A stretch of 11,569 nt of DNA from a virus. Lineage: Duplodnaviria > Heunggongvirae > Uroviricota > Caudoviricetes. Below, one piece after another: positions 1 to 11,367 of this stretch. Positions within the stretch are counted from its first letter, which is position 1; every line of letters starts with the position of its first letter. A program made the translations under genes and the position numbers. The notes beneath the pieces are model-generated. The model had not been told where the DNA came from, did no database searches, and saw only the letters and a list, made by a program, of their open reading frames with translations. The stretch lies in IMG/VR virus record IMGVR_UViG_2671180283_000020. One strand, given 5' to 3'.

Positions 1-356
1 CGGTCGCCTGCGGCAACGGCTTTCCGGCTGATGGTCGTACGGACCTTTTTACCCCGGAGAACACCGGCAAGTCCCATAACCGCCATGAGACGTGCCACTG
101 TACATCTGGCCACCCTGATTCCTTCCCGTAACAACTGACGCCAGACTTTACGCACACCGTACACCTGATGATTTTCATCGTATACGCGCTGTATCTCTCT
201 CTTCAGCCAGTCGTCGTGCTGCGCACGGGCACTGCGTTTATCCGGATGATGTCGCTGTTGCTGACAATGGTAATACGTTGACGGGGCAATATGCAGTTCG
301 CTGCATACCGGTCCGACCCCGTACTGCTCACGCAGCTTATCCAGCAGTGGCATCAT
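1..356 (-). CDS. IS3-family transposase OrfB, N-terminal part only (truncated by window edge); normally made as an OrfAB fusion by -1 frameshifting
   Basis: Reverse-complement translation from 356 gives [79 protein letters not shown]..., which matches my recollection of IS629/IS1203 OrfB. The frame is open to position 1. Confidence 0.85.
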
Positions 357-679
357 TTTTTCCAGAGGCGGTCGAACTCCGCCTTCGCAAAATAAGCGGA
401 AGCCTGGCGAAGGATATCGTTACTGCGGCGCAGTTCACGATTTTCACGTTCCAGCTCTTTCAGACGCTGACGTTCAGCGCTGGTGAGCCCACCATCACCG
501 CCCCCGGTATCCCGCTCATGCTGGCGAACCCAGACACGCAGAGTCTCCGGCGTACAGCCAATCTTTGGGGCAATGGAACAAATTGCCGCCCACTGTGAGT
601 CATATTCATCCTGACTTTCCAGAACCATACGAATCGCCCGCTGACGGACTTCGGGGGAAAAACGAGTATTTTTAGTCAT
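353..679 (-). CDS. IS3-family transposase OrfA (HTH/leucine-zipper subunit), IS629/IS1203-like
   Basis: 108-aa [26 protein letters not shown]...[36 protein letters not shown]. The stop overlaps the orfB ATGATG, and a GAGG Shine-Dalgarno sits upstream of the ATG. Confidence 0.9.
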
Positions 680-704: not shown

Positions 705-1709
705 TTAGTCTCCAGGATTTCCGGGGCGGTTCACTACGGGATCTTTGTGAATGTCGATCGGACGTTCACGGACAAGGCCAAAAATAGTCTGGCGGTCGTA
801 GCGAAGGGCATCAGGCTGTTTGCGCATTGATGCCGAGATACGCTTCCAGTCTTCGCGGTCGTTGTCGATAACTTCATTTTTTGCCCAGCGATGGATGCTG
901 CCGTCAATGTTTCCGGCATCCACATCACCAGGCCAGAGAGCGTAGGCCAGTTCGTCATCCAGTGTTTTCCATGTCTGCTTGTATTCGCGATGAATGGCAG
1001 CAATGACCGGGCTGATTTTTCCTGTTGAATTTTCACTGTACTGTTGATTGGCTCTGGCGCGTGCGAGATCAACAACAGACGTGTATTTTCCGGTTTCCTT
1101 GCGTTCACCTTCGCGACGTTTTTTCCAGATGCGCATCTCTGCCTGAATTTCGGGCCATTTGGCACCAGGCTTACATTTATGCTTAACCCACCCGATGGCA
1201 TGCAGCTTAAGCTCCGGATACATGGCGTTAACTTCTGGCATTTTCATCAACGCTTCAACGATATGTCCGTCGAATGTTGCCATGTCTTCCTGCAACAATT
1301 CCTGTGCGCTAATAACCATATCAACGGTGATGTTTTCACATGTGTCGAACTTAACCATGACAGCGTTCTGTACTTCAGGGGCCAGCTTGTCAAAAGTGAC
1401 GTTCATCGGATCGGATTCAGTCTCAACCGGGACAAAGGAAGCAGACTCCTCATCCCAGCGGTTTTCCTGCATATATTCAGCATCCCAGGAATCGAGGGCA
1501 GGGCGGGGTATACCGGGTTTATCCTCGCAGACAAGAAATTTATAAGCGCAGTCCTGAGCAGCCGGATAATGCTCCAGGAATTGCCAGTGAAATTTTGCGC
1601 GGGCGCGACGTTCATCACCGGCTTCAATGGCAGTGGCTACAGCGACGGCACCTTCTTCCTTTATTGCCTGTTCGTCCGGAATGGCGGCGCAAATAAAGAC
1701 TTTACTCAT
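705..1709 (-). pseudogene. Prophage gene in the ydfE position, 3' end disrupted by the IS insertion (native sequence 734..1709; last ~10 codons and the stop come from IS terminal sequence)
   Basis: 334-aa ORF with GAGGT Shine-Dalgarno before the ATG at 1707-1709. The reading frame runs uninterrupted across the IS terminus at 733/734 and stops inside the IS, so the native C-terminus is missing. Synteny downstream of dicB-ydfD suggests the ydfE slot. No family recognised by eye. Confidence 0.6.
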
Positions 1710-1801: not shown

Positions 1802-1993
1802 TTAAAGACCTGCCGGGATTTCGTTATTATCCTGGTGAATAACTTTATCGACCGGGTAACAGTTACCGGGAATTTTCTGTTCGGTTGCTGCAGTCACACA
1901 CTCCTGCATTGTCCTGTGAACACTGACTGCAATATCAACTGGCTCTCCGGAAACAAGAAAAACTGTCAGAACAAGTGCAAATGCTGTATTCAT
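1802..1993 (-). CDS. ydfD: YdfD-like small lysis protein (63 aa) with hydrophobic N-terminal segment
   Basis: MNTAFALVLTVFLVSGEPVDIAVSVHRTMQECVTAATEQKIPGNCYPVDKVIHQDNNEIPAGL; AAGGA Shine-Dalgarno 8 nt upstream. The start ATG overlaps the dicB stop (ATGA). Closely resembles my recollection of Qin prophage YdfD. The track ORF 1802..2047 carries an N-terminal extension that I do not accept. Confidence 0.8.
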   Translation of the reverse strand: MNTAFALVLTVFLVSGEPVDIAVSVHRTMQECVTAATEQKIPGNCYPVDKVIHQDNNEIPAGL

Positions 1994-2178
1994 TGCCAGC
2001 ATCCTTTTTGTATCGGACGTAAACGGGCCAGCATTGAAAGAATGCATATTTTATTTAATAGCTCCCGTTCGTGTTTTCTCTTGTTAATGGCATCTTCAGT
2101 AAATACAGGGTTACTGATAGTGACACCAATTTCAAAACAACCTTCAGACGTATTAACGTTTGGTAATAACGTTTCCAT
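1990..2178 (-). CDS. dicB: DicB cell-division inhibitor (62 aa)
   Basis: METLLPNVNTSEGCFEIGVTISNPVFTEDAINKRKHERELLNKICILSMLARLRPIQKGCWQ, near-identical to recalled E. coli DicB, with the same length. GAGGA Shine-Dalgarno 7 nt upstream of the ATG at 2176-2178. The track ORF (1990..2283) is extended upstream. Confidence 0.85.
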   Translation of the reverse strand: METLLPNVNTSEGCFEIGVTISNPVFTEDAINKRKHERELLNKICILSMLARLRPIQKGCWQ

Positions 2179-2352
2179 TATCGCGTCCTCAACAATGAAT
2201 TTTGTGATGCGGTGCCTGGTGCCTCCAGGTGACGTTAACCAGTTAACAATTAACGCCGGATACAGAGAATCCCCCCATAACACTGTTTTTGGTTTTAACT
2301 GTTCCGCGTGCGCTCAGCCGCATTCACCGCATCACAAAATTCACTTTAAAAA

Positions 2353-2405
2353 GGGCGGCAGAGCAGTCACGGAGTAAAACTGATACCGCCAAACGTCACC
2401 AGAAA
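2353..2405 (-). ncRNA. dicF: DicF small RNA (53 nt, ftsZ-targeting sRNA of dicB operons), followed by a T-run at 2348..2352
   Basis: Reverse complement of 2353..2405 is TTTCTGGTGACGTTTGGCGGTATCAGTTTTACTCCGTGACTGCTCTGCCGCCC, matching the DicF sequence as I remember it. It ends in a GC-rich stem plus U-tail and sits upstream of dicB on the same strand, as in Qin. Confidence 0.8.
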
Positions 2406-2681
2406 ATTGATAACAGAGGGCGTTGCAGCGGGGTTGTCACTTAAGCGTATGGTCAACCTGACAACCCGGTGTCCTCAACGGGGGAAGGAATAACCCCGCC
2501 ATACTTACCGCCGCGCCATTTCGCGGGTTGCCACAACCGGAAGCGCACGGTCGAATTAAATTTAACGACACCGTACAGTGAGACGAACTTCGCCGTGCGC
2601 TTTCGTGTTGTGTGCCTGCTTTTAACCACGTCAGGCGAGGTGGTATCCTTCTTATCCCGAATAACCAAGAAGGAAATCTAT

Positions 2682-2882
2682 ATGACTAAAGAAGAATTTG
2701 TCTCTTATATTTTTGATAAAACGGTTGAAATGTATGCCGCTACTTACGGGTCCTGTAATCCTCTGAATAAACCAGAGGGGAAAGATGATTTCGACAAAAT
2801 TTACCGCTTCTTGGAGGACCGCTATATCAAAAGGTTAGAGGACGCAGGGATCAAATCCCCAGTGAAGTCACCATTGTCCTGA
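2682..2882 (+). CDS. Hypothetical 66-aa protein, antisense to the dicB operon leader (uncertain)
   Basis: MTKEEFVSYIFDKTVEMYAATYGSCNPLNKPEGKDDFDKIYRFLEDRYIKRLEDAGIKSPVKSPLS with AAGGA Shine-Dalgarno 7 nt upstream of the ATG at 2682 and a balanced, protein-like composition. Its orientation opposes the surrounding operon and its 3' end overlaps the convergent 125-aa gene. Confidence 0.3.
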   Translation: MTKEEFVSYIFDKTVEMYAATYGSCNPLNKPEGKDDFDKIYRFLEDRYIKRLEDAGIKSPVKSPLS

Positions 2883-3228
2883 GAACTTGCAGGACGTCAT
2901 GATCGTAACTTCCATCCAAACCGCGACGGCAAATTGCTTCTCGTATTACCGGAAGCAGTTCGCTGGAAATCTCGGTGCATATTTCACCTGATAATACGCT
3001 TGGCTCAAGTGAGAATATTGGTGAACTTACGGTCTTGGTCTCGACAGTTTCAGAGTCAGTGCCAACATTATAAAGCTCAACGAAAGCGGTCTTGATTTTC
3101 CGGGCCAGATCTTTTGCTGGCTCGCTTGCAATATCTTTCCCGATTTCTCGCAGCACAGAATGCAATGTATGAGCTGCTGTTTTCTGTACATCAGACGGTA
3201 AATCTTTAAATTCCATCGTCAGCCTCAT
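2851..3228 (-). CDS. Hypothetical prophage protein (125 aa from the ATG at 3228; 121 aa if the ATG at 3216 is used) in the dicB operon
   Basis: The first ATG overlaps the ydfA-like stop as TGATG; a second ATG at 3216 has a GAGG Shine-Dalgarno 6 nt upstream. Sequence MEFKDLPSDVQKTAAHTLHSVLREIGKDIASEP... is acidic and protein-like. No family recognised. Confidence 0.6.
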   Translation of the reverse strand: MRLTMEFKDLPSDVQKTAAHTLHSVLREIGKDIASEPAKDLARKIKTAFVELYNVGTDSETVETKTVSSPIFSLEPSVLSGEICTEISSELLPVIREAICRRGLDGSYDHDVLQVLRTMVTSLGI

Positions 3229-3380
3229 CAGTCAGTGTTTCTGGCTAACCAGCAACGCGCGCCAGATCCGGTTTTAAACGTTTTGCTTTTGGTATATGTC
3301 ATCGCGGTGAACGTACCGCCCTGGTTGGGGAACACGCCGTACACCAGAGATTCGTTGTTGCCAAGATCGATAGTATCCAT
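3228..3380 (-). CDS. ydfA: YdfA-like small prophage protein (50 aa), first gene downstream of the dicA-like repressor
   Basis: MDTIDLGNNESLVYGVFPNQGGTFTAMTYTKSKTFKTGSGARCWLARNTD with GAGGT Shine-Dalgarno 4 nt upstream of the internal ATG. The track ORF (3228..3473) includes an unsupported N-terminal extension. Size and position match ydfA of Qin; the sequence match is from imperfect memory. Confidence 0.55.
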   Translation of the reverse strand: MDTIDLGNNESLVYGVFPNQGGTFTAMTYTKSKTFKTGSGARCWLARNTD

Positions 3381-3496
3381 GTTGACCTCATTTCCCCTTA
3401 ACGCCGGGGTAGCGGAACTGTTTGCTGAGAACACCGTGCGGTGTCTTGATGGATCGTAATTTAGTTTTCTCATGAATATTGGTCAAGTACTTTTAA

Positions 3497-3509
3497 TGAG
3501 AAAACTCAA
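3497..3509. promoter_or_regulatory. Operator-like inverted repeat TGAGAAAACTCAA (copy 1), in the promoter region of the minus-strand dicB-type operon
   Basis: A 13-bp motif with TGAG/CTCA inverted half-sites, identical to the copy at 4031..4043. It lies between the repressor gene's 3' end and ydfA, overlapping candidate minus-strand -35/-10 elements. Confidence 0.45.
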
Positions 3510-3520
3510 TATTTAATGCA

Positions 3521-3555
3521 AAATAAAGCCAATACATTGAAATGTAAGGCTTTAA
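3521..3555 (-). terminator. Possible intrinsic terminator downstream of the dicA-like gene
   Basis: Minus strand reads GCCTTACATT-TCAATGTATTGGC (imperfect stem) followed by TTTATTTT. Stem is imperfect, so low confidence. Confidence 0.3.
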
Positions 3556-3571
3556 AATTTGTGAAGGGGGG

Positions 3572-3979
3572 TTATTGATGTTTGTTACGTTTGCGAGCTT
3601 CTAGTAGCTCGGTGAATAGGCGATTAAAATTCTCAACGCGGGCACGGAGTTCGCTGATTTGTGCTTGCTGCTCTGATTTTGGAAGTGCGCGATACAATCG
3701 CAACATCTCCAACTCATCTTCCGATAAGTCTAAGGCGCTGTTGAGTGCAACTGGTGGATCTGGTGTTTTATCCTCGTCACCAAACAGTATCCAAGTTGGT
3801 GAACATTGCAATACCTCAGCCAGGCGATGCAAATTTTGCCCGCGCGGGGCTGTATGGTCGCTTTCCCATAGTGAAATTGATGAGCCAGATACGCCAGCAG
3901 CTTTGCTTAAATCGTTTTGACTTAAACCAACCTGTTTGCGTCTTTCTCTAATTCGTTGACCTAAAGTTTTCTCGTTCAT
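3572..3979 (-). CDS. dicA: DicA-like XRE-family HTH repressor (prophage immunity repressor, 135 aa)
   Basis: MNEKTLGQRIRERRKQVGLSQNDLSKAAGVSGSSISLWESDHTAPRGQNLHRLAEVLQCSPTWILFGDEDK...: HTH_XRE signature in the N-terminus. Same length as DicA and strongly resembles it as I recall. Divergent from a Cro/DicC-like gene. Confidence 0.9.
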   Translation of the reverse strand: MNEKTLGQRIRERRKQVGLSQNDLSKAAGVSGSSISLWESDHTAPRGQNLHRLAEVLQCSPTWILFGDEDKTPDPPVALNSALDLSEDELEMLRLYRALPKSEQQAQISELRARVENFNRLFTELLEARKRNKHQ

Positions 3980-4000
3980 ATTTAGATATCTTAATAACCC

Positions 4001-4043
4001 TTGACTTGAGATTCCTTGAGTGATTACTATTGAGAAAACTCAA
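4001..4043 (+). promoter_or_regulatory. Candidate promoter for the dicC-like gene (-35 TTGACT 4001..4006, -10-like TTACTA/TACTAT about 4024..4030) overlapping operator-like motif TTGAGAAAACTCAA (4030..4043, copy 2) and additional TTGAG half-sites
   Basis: Hexamers read directly, with 17-18 bp spacing. The motif is identical to the 3497..3509 copy; three TTGAG half-sites occur within about 40 bp. Confidence 0.45.
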
Positions 4044-4056
4044 CTTTGGAGGGGTG

Positions 4057-4284
4057 ATGTTTAAATCAGACGTAATTAATTTTTATGGGACGAAAGCCAA
4101 AGTAGCGAAAGCTGCTGGTGTTGATCCATCTGCTGTTTCTCAATGGGGGGAACTGGTTCCTGAAGGTCGCGCGATGCGCCTGCAAGAGGCATCCGGCGGG
4201 GAACTTCAGTACGACCCCAAAGTTTATGACGAATATCGTAAGGCAAAGCGGGCGGGGCGGTTGAACAATGAAAATCACCCCTGA
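4057..4284 (+). CDS. dicC: Cro/DicC-like small regulator (75 aa), divergent from the repressor
   Basis: MFKSDVINFYGTKAKVAKAAGVDPSAVSQWGELVPEGRAMRLQEASGGELQYDPKVYDEYRKAKRAGRLNNENHP with GGAGG Shine-Dalgarno 5 nt upstream of the ATG at 4057. The track ORF starts at an upstream TTG (4030), which I consider less likely. Size and position match dicC/ydaS-type genes. Confidence 0.75.
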   Translation: MFKSDVINFYGTKAKVAKAAGVDPSAVSQWGELVPEGRAMRLQEASGGELQYDPKVYDEYRKAKRAGRLNNENHP

Positions 4285-7022: not shown

Positions 7023-7868
7023 ATGAGGAAAAAATCGTTTGGACGTTGCCCGTTTGATTTCGACGAAGATGTAAAAAAAATAGCCGCGATAAATAAATAT
7101 ATCCATGCGAAATTTGAGAGGCATAAAAATAAAATAGATAACCTAAAGGGGGTGGAACAAAAATTGATGGTTTTACATTACTTTAATGTACTGAATGAAC
7201 TTAGTAATCAGGCTATATTTTCTTTGAGTACCGGAGCCTTTTCAGCATCGGAAGTATTAACTAGAGTTATAATGGAACAGGCTGCCAATCAATTTTATAT
7301 AGCAATTGATGATGGAAAAAATGCACAAGCATTACTCAAGGGTAGTAAGAAATTAGTTCATAGTAATGGGAAACGGTGGCTGGAGTGTTTAAAATCCAAA
7401 GAAATGACTAATCCAGCAGCAGATGAAAGGATTCGTATCGGAAAAGAGCTAACTGATATGTTTAATAGATTGTGGCCAAATACACCTGAATATCCTGGAA
7501 CCAAAAAGCTTTTCGAAGTAATTGGCTGGGAAACACACTATCATGCCTATTACGTCCCTCTTTGTGATTCAATACATACATTCTCTGATGATATGGCAAA
7601 TATAGTATCTCTATATAATGCAATCCAAAGCGATAAAACTACTGCTATCGAACTCACTCTTGCAGTTAAACAAGAAAATAAACGGCTGGCAATTTATAAT
7701 GTCGTAATTGCTATTGGCCTGCGGTGTGAGGCCTTAGTAAATGTATTTAACTCTTTAGGTTATCGAGATATTATAACTGAAATGGCGCCAACAATAGATG
7801 CAGTCAACCAGATTATAATTCGATATGATGATTTCGAACATTCCAGAATTTTTATTGTCAATAATTAA
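7023..7868 (+). CDS. Orphan hypothetical protein (281 aa), AT-rich, predicted largely alpha-helical; candidate defence/abortive-infection cargo gene of unknown family
   Basis: Long ORF in AT-rich DNA with a near-consensus AGGAGG Shine-Dalgarno. No Walker, HNH, HEPN or other motif recognised by eye. Located between the prophage replication module and a decayed integrase plus the Septu operon. Confidence 0.75.
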   Translation: MRKKSFGRCPFDFDEDVKKIAAINKYIHAKFERHKNKIDNLKGVEQKLMVLHYFNVLNELSNQAIFSLSTGAFSASEVLTRVIMEQAANQFYIAIDDGKNAQALLKGSKKLVHSNGKRWLECLKSKEMTNPAADERIRIGKELTDMFNRLWPNTPEYPGTKKLFEVIGWETHYHAYYVPLCDSIHTFSDDMANIVSLYNAIQSDKTTAIELTLAVKQENKRLAIYNVVIAIGLRCEALVNVFNSLGYRDIITEMAPTIDAVNQIIIRYDDFEHSRIFIVNN

Positions 7869-8902: not shown

Positions 8903-10276
8903 ATGAAAAGACTATATTATACCCATCATGATAGTCGAACCTTAAAACTTGCTATAGAAGGTGATGTTTCTGATAATGCGAATATTTTTACAGTAATTGT
9001 AGGTAAAAATGGCGTTGGAAAAAGCAGATTGTTATCTCAGATTGCTAAAGACTGTATTCAAGATGTTCATTTCTTGAAAACTTTTAATCCATTATTTGAC
9101 AGAGAAATAACACCAAAGTTAATTGCCGTATCTACCAGCCCATTCGATAAATTCCCTCCAGGGCGTAGGTCATTAAATCACCAAAGGAAAGAAAATAATT
9201 ATCGCTATGTGGGTATGCGTGGAGAAGGCCCCTTCGGCGTATCAAATGCCGTATCCCTTTTATCTTCAGCAGCGAGAGGTTGGCTAGAGAAACTTGCTTA
9301 TTCAGAAAATCCTGCAAATTTACTCGATGTTTTTCATTCTATTGATTTTGAGCCCCATATAGAGTTTGTATTTAAACCAACTTACAACGGACCGGACACT
9401 CCTGACTATAACTTCATTGGTGTATATTCAGATGAGATATTAACGGAAGTTAAGGAGTTATATTTAAAATACAATATAAAAATTGACAGGAAGAATATTG
9501 AGAGTCTCTTAAAGTTAAACTCCGAATCACGTCATGATATTTACGAAGCACTGGTTGAAATTAATCGATTTGAACCTGAACGTAGGGCTGTAACCTTGTC
9601 AGTCGATTTTACCAATGGTGAAACATTGGTTGGCTCGACTTATGCGAATAATTATTTTTCTAGATCAATTCTTAAACTTATGAACGCTGGCTTCATGAGA
9701 TTGATGGATATGCGACTCATAAAAAAAAGCTATGGTCCCATGTCACTTAAACGTGCGAGCTCGGGAGAACAATGTTTATTAGTGATGTTGCTTGGAATTG
9801 CAGGGCATATAACTGATGGTTCTATAATATTAATTGATGAACCGGAAATAAGCTTGCATCCTCGATGGCAGGAAGAGTTTATCATTATGTTAACAAAAGC
9901 ATTTTTAACTTACTCAGGTTGTCAATTCATAATTGCAACTCATTCACCACAAATAATATCCAATTTGCCGAATAAAGGTTGTTATATAACATCTTTGTCG
10001 AAAAGTTATCTTTATAAAGCAAAATACTTTAGCAACCGGTCTGCAGACTATCAACTTGCGGAACTATTTGATGCCCCTGGCATTATGAATGAATACATTG
10101 CCAGGTTAGCTTTCAATTTACTTTCAAAAGTTAAGACTGCTAAGTTAGTAACAGATGATAATTGGCGTGAATTAAAACAACTCCAACTTCTCCTTGAAAA
10201 CGTTAATAGTAATGACCCTATTAATGAACTCGTAAATTCCGTATCTCAGGTGTGTGAAATTTATGCCAAAAATTAA
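8903..10276 (+). CDS. ptuA: Septu-like PtuA: ABC/OLD-type (AAA_15/AAA_21-like) ATPase, 457 aa
   Basis: Walker A VIVGKNGVGKSRLL near the N-terminus, ABC-signature-like SSGEQ, Walker B IILIDEPEISLHP, H-loop IIATHSP. AT-rich gene that overlaps the downstream HNH gene. Confidence 0.8.
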   Translation: MKRLYYTHHDSRTLKLAIEGDVSDNANIFTVIVGKNGVGKSRLLSQIAKDCIQDVHFLKTFNPLFDREITPKLIAVSTSPFDKFPPGRRSLNHQRKENNYRYVGMRGEGPFGVSNAVSLLSSAARGWLEKLAYSENPANLLDVFHSIDFEPHIEFVFKPTYNGPDTPDYNFIGVYSDEILTEVKELYLKYNIKIDRKNIESLLKLNSESRHDIYEALVEINRFEPERRAVTLSVDFTNGETLVGSTYANNYFSRSILKLMNAGFMRLMDMRLIKKSYGPMSLKRASSGEQCLLVMLLGIAGHITDGSIILIDEPEISLHPRWQEEFIIMLTKAFLTYSGCQFIIATHSPQIISNLPNKGCYITSLSKSYLYKAKYFSNRSADYQLAELFDAPGIMNEYIARLAFNLLSKVKTAKLVTDDNWRELKQLQLLLENVNSNDPINELVNSVSQVCEIYAKN

Positions 10277-10898
10277 AAATCCAATTAGATTCAGCGCAGA
10301 GTCATTAGATATTATTGAGAAAAAATTGTCTTCTCCAGATTTTAAGCATACCAACTGGGGAGATGATGATTTGCAAGTTCTCCGTGCAGAAATTAGAAAT
10401 CATTACAGAGAAGAACAAAAGCTAGAATGTGTATATTGTCATGAGCCTATTGGGGTAAGAGCTGCACAAGCTGCTCCTATAGAGCATATTGTGCCAAAAT
10501 CTCAATATCTATGTTTTATTTTTGAACCTAAGAATCTATGTGTAGTATGTCCTGACTGCAATGAATTCAAAGGTAAAAATGAAGTGTTATTTGAACCCGT
10601 AATAAATGGGGGGCGGCGCAAAAACTATCCAACTGCATCTGCATCATTTCGCATCGTTCATCCACATATAGATGATTATGAGATGCATATTATAAAAGCA
10701 AATCGTGTTTATGTGGACAAAACACCTAAAGGGCACTATACCATTGGAATATGTAAACTAAATAGATTTTTTCATTATTTTGGGATGTGTGATGAATTTG
10801 TTAATGATGCAAAAATTGCTGAGGCAAATGAAAATTTTTTCAAAAAAGGTAGTATTACTACTAATGAATTATTGGATGATGACATTCATTTGATTTAA
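10263..10898 (+). CDS. ptuB: Septu-like PtuB: HNH endonuclease, 211 aa from the ATG at 10263 (214 aa if the GTG at 10254 is used)
   Basis: HNH-type motif CVYCHEP...APIEHIVPKSQ...CVVCPDCNEFKGKN...VHPHID (Cys pairs plus His/Asn/His). Overlaps the ptuA 3' end by 14-23 nt, implying one operon. Confidence 0.8.
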   Translation: MPKIKNPIRFSAESLDIIEKKLSSPDFKHTNWGDDDLQVLRAEIRNHYREEQKLECVYCHEPIGVRAAQAAPIEHIVPKSQYLCFIFEPKNLCVVCPDCNEFKGKNEVLFEPVINGGRRKNYPTASASFRIVHPHIDDYEMHIIKANRVYVDKTPKGHYTIGICKLNRFFHYFGMCDEFVNDAKIAEANENFFKKGSITTNELLDDDIHLI

Positions 10899-11036: not shown

Positions 11037-11094
11037 GGCTGCGGGTGCTTGAGGCTATCTGTCTCAGGCATGAACACCAAAGGCAGATAGAGAA

Positions 11095-11165
11095 AAGCCC
11101 CAGTTAACATTACGCGTCCTGCAAGACGCTTAACATTAATCTGAGGCCAATTTCATGCTAGACAC
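11095..11165 (-). ncRNA. sok: Putative Sok-like antisense RNA (boundaries approximate)
   Basis: Inferred from the minus-strand promoter at 11170..11198 and from the hok/sok paradigm, where Sok is antisense to the mok translation-initiation region. Neither end is clearly defined by a terminator in the sequence. Confidence 0.3.
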
Positions 11166-11169
11166 ATGT

Positions 11170-11198
11170 AGGTTAGCCTCTTACGTGCCGGAAGGCAA
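11170..11198 (-). promoter_or_regulatory. Candidate sok promoter on the minus strand (-35 TTGCCT, 17-bp spacer, -10 TAACCT)
   Basis: Reverse complement of 11193..11198 is TTGCCT and of 11170..11175 is TAACCT. It sits between the upstream ATG at 11155 and the hok ATG, the arrangement I recall for the R1 sok promoter (TTGCGC / TATCCT). Confidence 0.45.
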
Positions 11199-11211
11199 GG
11201 AGAAGCAGGCT

Positions 11212-11367
11212 ATGAAGCAGCAAAAGGCGATGTTAATCGCCCTGATCGTCATCTGTTTAACCGTCATAGTGACGACACTGGTAACGAGGAAAGACCTCTG
11301 CGAGGTACGAATCCGAACCGGCCAGACGGAGGTCGCTGTCTTCACAGCTTACGAACCTGAGGAGTAA
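11212..11367 (+). CDS. hokD: Hok/Gef-family type I toxin (51 aa), HokD/RelF-like
   Basis: MKQQKAMLIALIVICLTVIVTTLVTRKDLCEVRIRTGQTEVAVFTAYEPEE with AAGGAG Shine-Dalgarno 9 nt upstream. Near-identical to recalled HokD (RelF). The track ORF 11155..11367 is an in-frame upstream extension from the mok-equivalent ATG. Confidence 0.85.
   Translation: MKQQKAMLIALIVICLTVIVTTLVTRKDLCEVRIRTGQTEVAVFTAYEPEE

Follow-up and report, generated by a model that had tools for sequence, protein, structure and literature searches.

The window, an 11,569-nt stretch of DNA, is part of an Escherichia coli lambdoid prophage. Between 2074 and 11569 it shares 99.8-100% identity with E. coli strain Z1323HEC0108, in which the prophage adjoins yccA. 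The left end departs from that genome: 1-733 is an IS3-family fragment, and 734-1765 is only 90% identical with a different exonuclease allele. The prophage is decayed: an IS fragment lies within its exonuclease gene, and its replication genes are followed by a defence island. The genes and signals around its repressor gene are as follows; the promoters are predictions from a simple sigma-70 consensus scan of 3300-4200.

1990-3380, minus strand: operon downstream of dicBp, with ydfA (3228-3380), an unnamed ORF, the DicF sRNA (2353-2404) and dicB (1990-2178), from translations, Rfam and the annotation of the near-identical genome
3458-3486, minus strand: dicBp, predicted promoter of the dicB operon (PL analogue), -35 TTGACC at 3486-3481, 17-bp spacer, -10 TAAATT at 3463-3458
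3519-3561, minus strand: hairpin with a trailing U-run, beyond the stop codon of dicA, fold of -12.3 kcal/mol (z = -3.2 against shuffles)
3572-3979, minus strand: dicA-like repressor gene, 135 aa, matching NF007257 (DicA) at full length (1-135) with 238.3 bits against a cut-off of 101
4001-4030, plus strand: dicCp, predicted dicC promoter (PR analogue), -35 TTGACT at 4001-4006, 18-bp spacer, -10 TACTAT at 4025-4030
4057-4284, plus strand: dicC-like gene of Cro type, 75 aa, matching NF007282 (DicC) with 167.6 bits against a cut-off of 130

Family calls for both proteins were made with NCBIfam models at their curated cut-offs. The dicA-like product carries an N-terminal helix-turn-helix like that of P22 C2, with the recognition-helix region VSGSSISLWES. 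It falls outside the SOS-cleavable CI/C2 class: the protein has 135 aa, its match to P22 C2 is limited to residues 1-72, and no S24-type family was found among its NCBIfam matches. The dicC-like gene combines an allele-specific N-terminal DNA-binding half with a conserved C-terminal half, and the DicF RNA is supported by an Rfam match of 76.7 bits. The sigma-70 scan returned exactly two promoter-like sites in its interval, dicBp pointing into ydfA-dicB and dicCp pointing into dicC. Their predicted starts fall near 3451 (minus strand) and near 4037 (plus strand). The dicA ATG at 3979 has no Shine-Dalgarno sequence in front of it, so the dicA mRNA may be leaderless. An 81-aa mechanical ORF at 3228-3473, whose start lies within one of the sites described below (OB1), was rejected as a gene because its first 31 codons are upstream of the predicted dicBp start and because the annotated ydfA starts at 3380 with its own Shine-Dalgarno sequence upstream. 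The hairpin at 3519-3561 was not called by a simple terminator scan; it is likely the intrinsic terminator of dicA, parting that gene from the dicBp operators.

Flanking the repressor gene is a repeated motif. The 13-mer TGAGAAAACTCAA occurs exactly at 3497-3509 and 4031-4043, both on the plus strand, as the first-pass annotation had reported. The full site is longer, a 14-bp dyad of the form TTGAG-AAAA-CTCAA (5-N4-5 geometry), and it is present as a perfect palindrome, TTGAGAAAACTCAA, at 4030-4043, built around the 4031 copy. A third strong copy at 3460-3473, reading ATGAGAAAACTAAA on the minus strand, differs from the 13-mer by one mismatch. This copy had been overlooked earlier. The strong sites, here termed OB1, OB2 and Oc, number three and not two. 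Two weaker dyads with two half-site mismatches each bring the total to five, and every one of them overlaps or abuts predicted promoter hexamers. In order along the window, without strand, these predicted operators are:

3460-3473: OB1, proximal dicBp operator dyad TTTAGTTTTCTCAT (plus strand), covering the dicBp spacer and 4 bp of the -10
3496-3509: OB2, distal operator dyad of dicBp (ATGAGAAAACTCAA), with 10 bp between it and the downstream -35, holding the first copy of the 13-mer
3981-3994: Oa, weak dyad TTTAGATATCTTAA adjoining the dicA start codon, with one mismatch per half-site
4006-4019: Om, weak site TTGAGATTCCTTGA in the middle of the array, its left half good and its right half poor, over the dicCp -35 and spacer
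4030-4043: Oc, perfect dyad, from the last base of the dicCp -10 through the expected start site, holding the second copy of the 13-mer

The two placements first proposed for the 13-mer hold against the predicted promoters. The copy assigned to the promoter region of the minus-strand ydfA/dicB operon lies 10 bp upstream of the predicted TTGACC, and the copy assigned to the -10/start region of the divergent gene belongs to a dyad that begins on the last base of the predicted TACTAT. Additional TTGAG half-sites noted at about 4006 and 4016 are seen at 4006-4010 and 4016-4020, and they are part of the weak middle site, Om. An AAAA/TTTT centre is found in all three strong sites. Oa, Om and Oc, centred at 3987.5, 4012.5 and 4036.5, form a three-site array with spacings of 25 and 24 bp; OB1 and OB2 lie 36 bp apart from centre to centre, or about 3.4 helical turns.

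The 13-nt word is the longest one common to the two intergenic regions that flank dicA (190 and 77 nt, either strand), a length reached in only 2 of 5000 dinucleotide-preserving shuffles. Across the window, the degenerate dyad TTGAGNNNNCTCAA is matched with at most two mismatches at ten positions, against 6.2 expected, and five of the ten fall within the 267 intergenic nucleotides that make up 2.3% of the window. The others (7114, 8022, 8145, 8462 and 8729) occur at chance rate and were set aside. No further strong site with two or fewer half-site mismatches was found in the dicBp region; its sole candidate with three mismatches, 3446-3459, was treated as chance because its centre contains G/C.

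A profile of identity between the window and the K-12 Qin prophage, taken in 30-nt windows, shows that the sites belong to a discrete block:

3440-4160, without strand: immunity cassette of 0.7 kb, about 55-60% identical to K-12 Qin between flanks of 87-100% identity

This cassette encloses the five sites together with dicA and the part of dicC that encodes its DNA-binding half. The left flank extends up to about 3439, and identity with K-12 returns to at least 87% from about 4160, inside dicC; megablast matches in K-12-type genomes likewise cover the flanks only. Of 5426 complete E. coli genomes, 797 match at least 80% of a 1.1-kb query around the sites, and the DicA immunity type with this operator set is common in the species.

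Within the allele, the sites are more constant than the DNA around them. We compared the window with 54 distinct same-allele sequences, drawn from IMG/VR contigs (L028-L107), loci L006-L009, which include Buttiauxella gaviniae, and phage mEp460. Mean divergence from the window was 0.97% over 42 site positions, 6.8% over the other 167 non-coding positions (Mann-Whitney p = 1e-4, sites against other non-coding DNA) and 1.85% over the dicA coding sequence. OB1 and Oc are each unaltered in 50 of the 54 sequences, Om in 48, and OB2 in 43, its variants being off by one or two bases; the 14-mer 3982-3995, which overlaps Oa, is unaltered in 53. The immediate flanks of Oc carry 9 (4020-4029) and 13 variants (4044-4056), and the 22-bp spacer between OB1 and OB2 carries 34, with the dicBp -35 inside it nearly invariant. 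In B. gaviniae (L009), whose DicA is 75% identical and has the helix VSDSSISLWES, TGAGAAAACT[CA]A stands at all three places with at most one half-site change (CTCAG, CTCAA, CTAAA) between flanks that are unalignable. The motif, whose absence from orthologous immunity regions would have spoken against an operator, is thus conserved in them, and it co-varies with the repressor allele.

This co-variation extends over 11 DicA alleles from Escherichia, Citrobacter, Enterobacter, Superficieibacter, Buttiauxella and Rahnella, each with dyads of its own sequence at matching offsets. Distances from the dicA ATG are about 3, 28 and 53 nt on the dicC side, and on the dicB side there are two sites, 33-37 bp apart, that straddle the -35. 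Allele-specific dyads at the position of OB1 recur in K-12, L003, L004 and others, and other alleles also have a dyad at the offset of Oa from the dicA ATG. Half-sites pair with recognition-helix regions as follows:

Window and Buttiauxella (L009): half-site ATTGAG, helix region S(G/D)SSISLWES
L010 and L011: half-site GTTGAG (variants GTTAAG and GTTTAG), helix region S(H/Y)A(T/S)ISLWES
K-12, L004, L014 and L017: half-site GTTAG, helix region (S/A)HV(S/T)(V/I)SQWER
L003 and L016: half-site CTTAG, helix region AHVTISQWER, with helix 2 'QAAL' in place of 'QREA'

A TTGAG-type half-site accompanies a recognition helix of the SLWES type, TTAG accompanies one of the SQWER type, and the helix-2 alternatives 'QAAL' and 'QREA' track an outer C or G, respectively, in several alleles and species. 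With sites picked by homologous position and symmetry, the Oc of each allele matched the dicBp sites of its own allele with a sum of 111, against 81.7 +/- 6.7 when permuted, and none of 100,000 permutations reached 111. The alleles are related, so what the test samples is not 11 but perhaps three or four independent changes of specificity. An unanchored matrix of best 14-mer matches, upstream against downstream for all alleles (diagonal mean 12.6 versus 11.2 off the diagonal), was dropped in favour of positionally defined sites because AT-rich background alone gives 10-11 matches in 14.

We propose that the motifs serve as operators in a DicA/DicC (P22 C2-like) immunity switch of lambdoid kind, a reading to which we assign a probability of about 85%. 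What the analysis shows directly is the sites themselves, with their dyad symmetry, their position relative to the predicted promoters, their conservation and their co-variation with the repressor allele, and the families to which the two proteins belong. The earlier suggestion that a DicA-type repressor controls both the dicB-side operon and the divergent gene is supported by the family scores, the Qin-like layout, conservation and co-variation.

The model that follows takes physical binding, the occupancy of each site by each protein, cooperativity and autoactivation from K-12 and P22. A DicA dimer would read each 14-bp dyad through its helix-turn-helix, contacting TTGAG and sensing the A-tract centre indirectly. 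Occupied OB1, over the spacer and -10, would block RNA polymerase at dicBp and keep ydfA, DicF and dicB silent; overlapping the predicted spacer and -10, it is the more plausible direct block of the two dicBp sites, and of the strong sites it is probably the most important. OB2, upstream of the -35, may add affinity or cooperativity, and the 36-bp spacing offers no obvious same-face arrangement for cooperative binding. At the other end of the gene, DicA on Oc would cover the dicCp start and block dicC and, by analogy with K-12, would also stimulate the weak promoter of dicA. Oa and Om would be low-affinity sites at which DicC, the Cro analogue, or an excess of DicA turns dicA down, with Oa the candidate for dicA shut-off in analogy with lambda OR3. 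DicC probably uses the same sites. In K-12, DicA left the equivalents of Oa and Om unbound in vivo (PMC3441716), and the weak sites of the window may likewise not be targets of DicA. The site sequence is specific to the immunity allele common to the window and mEp460.

The proposed assignment to DicA has one rival among the phage regulators, namely that the dyads are chiefly sites of the Cro-like DicC and that the targets of DicA are other sequences or just some of these dyads. In its favour, the cassette also includes the DNA-binding half of DicC, which is likewise allele-specific, lambdoid switches have operators common to Cro and repressor, and DicA in K-12 bound Oc only and neither Oa nor Om (PMC3441716). 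However, that K-12 Oc is the positional equivalent of 4030-4043 and does bind DicA (PMC3441716), repression of dicBp needs dicA (PMC10448788), and the sites have the geometry of those read by P22 C2, the nearest relative of DicA with a solved structure (PMC5175364). We consider this rival improbable as a full account; it complements the main reading and does not exclude it. A host nucleoid protein (H-NS/Cnu or Fis) in place of phage regulators is suggested by the Cnu-H-NS complex, which antagonises DicA at K-12 Oc (PMC3441716), by the reported silencing of the locus by Fis and Hfq (discussed in PMC10448788) and by the A-tract centres of the sites. A protein of fixed specificity, however, would not explain half-sites that change with the DicA/DicC alleles in one host species, and we give this possibility very little credence.

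Two further readings dispense with a DNA-binding regulator. AT-rich promoter DNA such as this could generate a repeat by chance or keep one as a purely historical duplication without binding function, and weak matches to the degenerate dyad do occur elsewhere at about the chance rate. Against this stand the rarity of the 13-nt shared word in shuffles, a site divergence sevenfold below that of the surrounding non-coding DNA and also below that of dicA coding sequence, the retention of the sites in another genus despite diverged flanks, and the presence of different dyads at the same places in different alleles; mere chance or relic is thus highly implausible. The repeat might instead act at the RNA level, with the inverted OB1/OB2 pair, or Oc, forming a hairpin or attenuator or opening a mini-ORF (ATGAGAAAACTCAATATTTAA, MRKLNI*, 3496-3516): OB1 and OB2 are mutually complementary at 12 of 14 positions across a 22-nt gap, and ATG-started reading frames begin in both copies. 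Yet a dicA transcript should already have ended at the terminator hairpin before it reaches OB2 and most of OB1, and the predicted dicBp transcript starts only beyond them, which makes joint transcription of the two sites unlikely. The dicBp sites of K-12 and of other alleles, moreover, are each dyads that are not strongly complementary to each other, and conservation of a dyad at each position is the signature of DNA binding, which leaves an RNA role with scarcely any likelihood.

Returning to the operator reading, it can be extended in a speculative direction. The centres of OB2 and OB1 lie 534-570 bp from that of Oc, and DicA oligomers might bridge the two operator sets into a loop around dicA while the allele series forms a recognition code; taken together, we regard this extension as doubtful. 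If true, the loop would tie the autoregulation of dicA to the silencing of both dicBp and dicCp, as a miniature of the lambda OL-OR loop. As for the code, the natural allele series may provide one for a P22 C2-like helix-turn-helix; it is correlative, with about three or four independent changes behind it. The pairing would relate helix-3 residues 32, 33 and 37 to half-site positions 5-7, and helix-2 residues 22-23 to the outer base, again as a correlation.

The analysis fixes an operator set for a common DicA immunity type of E. coli that is also present in the live phage mEp460. The cross-allele comparison would place DicA-type action at dicBp on one dyad in the spacer and -10 and another upstream of the -35, for a promoter at which the site location in K-12 is still listed as unknown in a recent survey (PMC7567609). 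dicBp drives DicF and DicB, which bring about cell-division inhibition and altered phage sensitivity, and knowledge of heteroimmunity helps predict cross-regulation among several DicA-type prophages in one strain. The practical value is modest and the understanding of such switches is unchanged: this appears to be an ordinary lambdoid switch with its own site sequence. As judged from the sites, its immunity specificity is distinct from that of Qin and from that of P22.

The closest characterised system is dicA-dicC-dicB of the K-12 Qin prophage, where dicBp and dicCp are repressed by DicA and repression of dicBp requires dicA (PMC10448788). There, DicA binds in vivo to a 20-bp inverted repeat, Oc (TTGTTAGTCATAACTAACAA), located between the dicC -10 and the ribosome-binding site; binding is lost when one base is altered, and from Oc DicA both represses dicC and activates dicA, while Oa and Om, predicted from sequence, showed no DicA binding in vivo (PMC3441716). 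For dicB, the RegulonDB-level evidence for a DicA site is rated low, with location unknown (PMC7567609), so the K-12 model of dicBp rests on genetics and sequence. K-12 DicA is without a self-cleavage domain, and relief of repression comes from an antirepressor (Rem), from heat or urea, or stochastically (PMC10448788). The window shares with Qin the gene order dicB, DicF, ydfA, dicA, divergent dicC and ydaT, the repressor length of 135 aa, flanking DNA of 87-100% identity, an Oa-Oc distance of 49-50 bp, and five dyads whose positions agree when measured from the dicA ATG, from the dicCp -10, and from the -35 and -10 of dicBp. The K-12 counterpart of OB1 is GTTAGTCATGGCTAAT, in the dicBp spacer and -10, that of OB2 is GTTAGCTATAGCATAC, upstream of the dicBp -35, and the perfect dyad of the window stands where Oc stands in K-12.

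The proteins and the site sequences differ. DicA is 56% and DicC 71% identical between the two, the recognition helix is SGSSISLWES in the window and SHVSVSQWER in K-12 (helix-3 residues 32, 33 and 37 being G, S and L against H, V and Q), and the half-site is TTGAG rather than GTTAG. Comparison with the published DicA operator shows agreement in architecture but not in sequence: the two Oc sites agree at 7 of 20 positions in the same frame, and the GTTAG-N6-CTAAC dyad of K-12 specificity is absent from both intergenic regions. A site so unlike the published K-12 operator implies a different immunity specificity; with such differing sites the two repressors should not cross-react, and heteroimmunity is expected.

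Phages mEp460 (LR597641) and HannyBb (PP925841) carry the same immunity allele as the window, with about 90.5% DNA identity over 3440-4060. mEp460 is described as a functional temperate phage, and mEp460_evo81 is mentioned in the literature (PMC10448788), whereas the window is a decayed prophage. The allele is therefore in use both in cryptic prophages and in a temperate phage that is still live. A full-text literature search for the 13-mer, incomplete in its coverage, returned no paper and no published operators for this allele, and no published operator analysis was found for mEp460.

At the level of structure, the nearest relative is P22 C2. Residues 1-68 to 1-72 of the window's DicA align without gaps to the C2 N-terminal domain (1adr, 2r1j and 3jxb; E = 2e-15), and positions 1-68 correspond residue for residue at 49% identity. 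P22 operators (consensus ATTTAAGATATCTTAAAT; PMC5175364) have the form TTAAG-N4-CTTAA with four uncontacted central base pairs (PMC5175364, PMC4267663). The centre is read through minor-groove shape, an A-tract being best (KD 4.3 nM versus 14.4 nM; PMC4267663). Each C2 monomer places one helix in a major-groove half-site, with Val33 against thymine methyls and Gln37 contacting a base (PMC5175364). The sites in the window resemble these in their half-sites of at least five contacted bases, set on either side of a centre of four A/T base pairs, in TT at half-site positions 3-4 and AG at positions 6-7, common to both, and in a three-site array with 24-25 bp spacing. They differ at half-site position 5, which is A in P22 and G in the window (TTAAG to TTGAG), and helix 3 of the repressor carries the changes N32G, V33S, Q37L and R40S, of which V33 and Q37 contact bases in P22 C2 (PMC5175364). 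We infer that these four substitutions may cause the new specificity. The P22 immC pattern (ATTTAAG-N4-CTTAAAT) is not that of the window, in which the strong sites carry TTGAG and the right half of Oa, CTTAA, is the only match. DicA in the window, at 135 aa, also differs from C2 in having neither the P22 C-terminal domain nor the RecA-cleavage site. Since it is without a cleavage domain, it would be induced by an antirepressor (Rem) and not by self-cleavage (PMC10448788).

With the lambda CI/Cro switch, finally, the window shares a repressor gene set between operator arrays over divergent early promoters, as well as three Cro-side sites about 24 bp apart and, as a system of this type, bistability (PMC10448788). 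The proteins and site sequences are unrelated to those of lambda at this level. The PL side of the window has only two clear sites, 36 bp apart and straddling the -35. The strongest site of the window's switch is the one farthest from the repressor gene, the position that in K-12 is also the activating site.

Up to the boundary of the allele-specific immunity cassette at about 3440, the leader (3382-3450) at the 5' end of the ydfA-dicB transcript unit retains 93-100% identity with K-12. Within this leader, at 3431-3444, lies a perfect 5-N4-5 dyad, ACACCGTGCGGTGT, which is kept in most alleles and may form a stem in the RNA or serve in its processing or in regulation.

L007, L008, and L012 are genome-collection records that carry the labels Bacillota, Veillonella parvula, and Collinsella MAGs. 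They harbor this Escherichia-type dicA region with 96-100% protein identity and are most likely E. coli prophage contigs that contaminate, or were mis-binned in, these MAGs.

Farther along the prophage, past the replication genes, the Septu anti-phage pair PtuA/PtuB occupies 8903-10898. A decayed integrase and a DUF5677 gene are located upstream of the pair, and the region looks like a defense islet inserted in the prophage. A type I toxin-antitoxin locus is also present.

7023-7868: DUF5677 gene, upstream of the Septu pair
8903-10276: PtuA (Septu), PADLOC E = 1e-165
10254-10898: PtuB, the HNH protein of Septu, PADLOC E = 1e-83
11043-11217 and 11155-11367: hok/sok type I toxin-antitoxin locus, with Sok RNA at 117 bits in Rfam

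The 70-aa ORF at 11155-11367 overlaps Sok and includes the gene called hokD in the annotation of the nearest genome.

The left end of the window features a mobile-element fragment and an incomplete prophage gene.

1-733, window left end: IS3-family element fragment, 99.9% identical to the IS1203-family copy in E. coli strain Z1323HEC0108
282-398, minus strand: ALIL frameshift pseudoknot (Rfam RF01497, 121.5 bits), inside the IS3-family fragment
705-1709, minus strand: truncated exonuclease ORF, adjoining the IS3-family fragment

Because the fragment abuts the truncated ORF, the prophage exo is interrupted in the window's source, whereas the otherwise near-identical Z1323HEC0108 encodes exo without this interruption. 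In the nearest complete genome (locus L109), rem is split by an IS3-family insertion (L109 1361-2925), just past the window end. Rem is an antirepressor that relieves DicA repression in K-12 (PMC10448788); should this rem insertion also be present in the source of the window, antirepressor-mediated induction of the DicA switch would be disabled.

Finally, no Shine-Dalgarno-like sequence is present before the dicA ATG (window 3979-3990, minus strand ...GATATCTAAATATG). The hexamer TAAGAT, which resembles a -10 element, precedes the ATG by 7 nt, and the candidate dicA promoter containing it was not called in the promoter scan. Judging from this arrangement, the dicA mRNA might be leaderless or near-leaderless when translated, like the lambda cI mRNA made at PRM.
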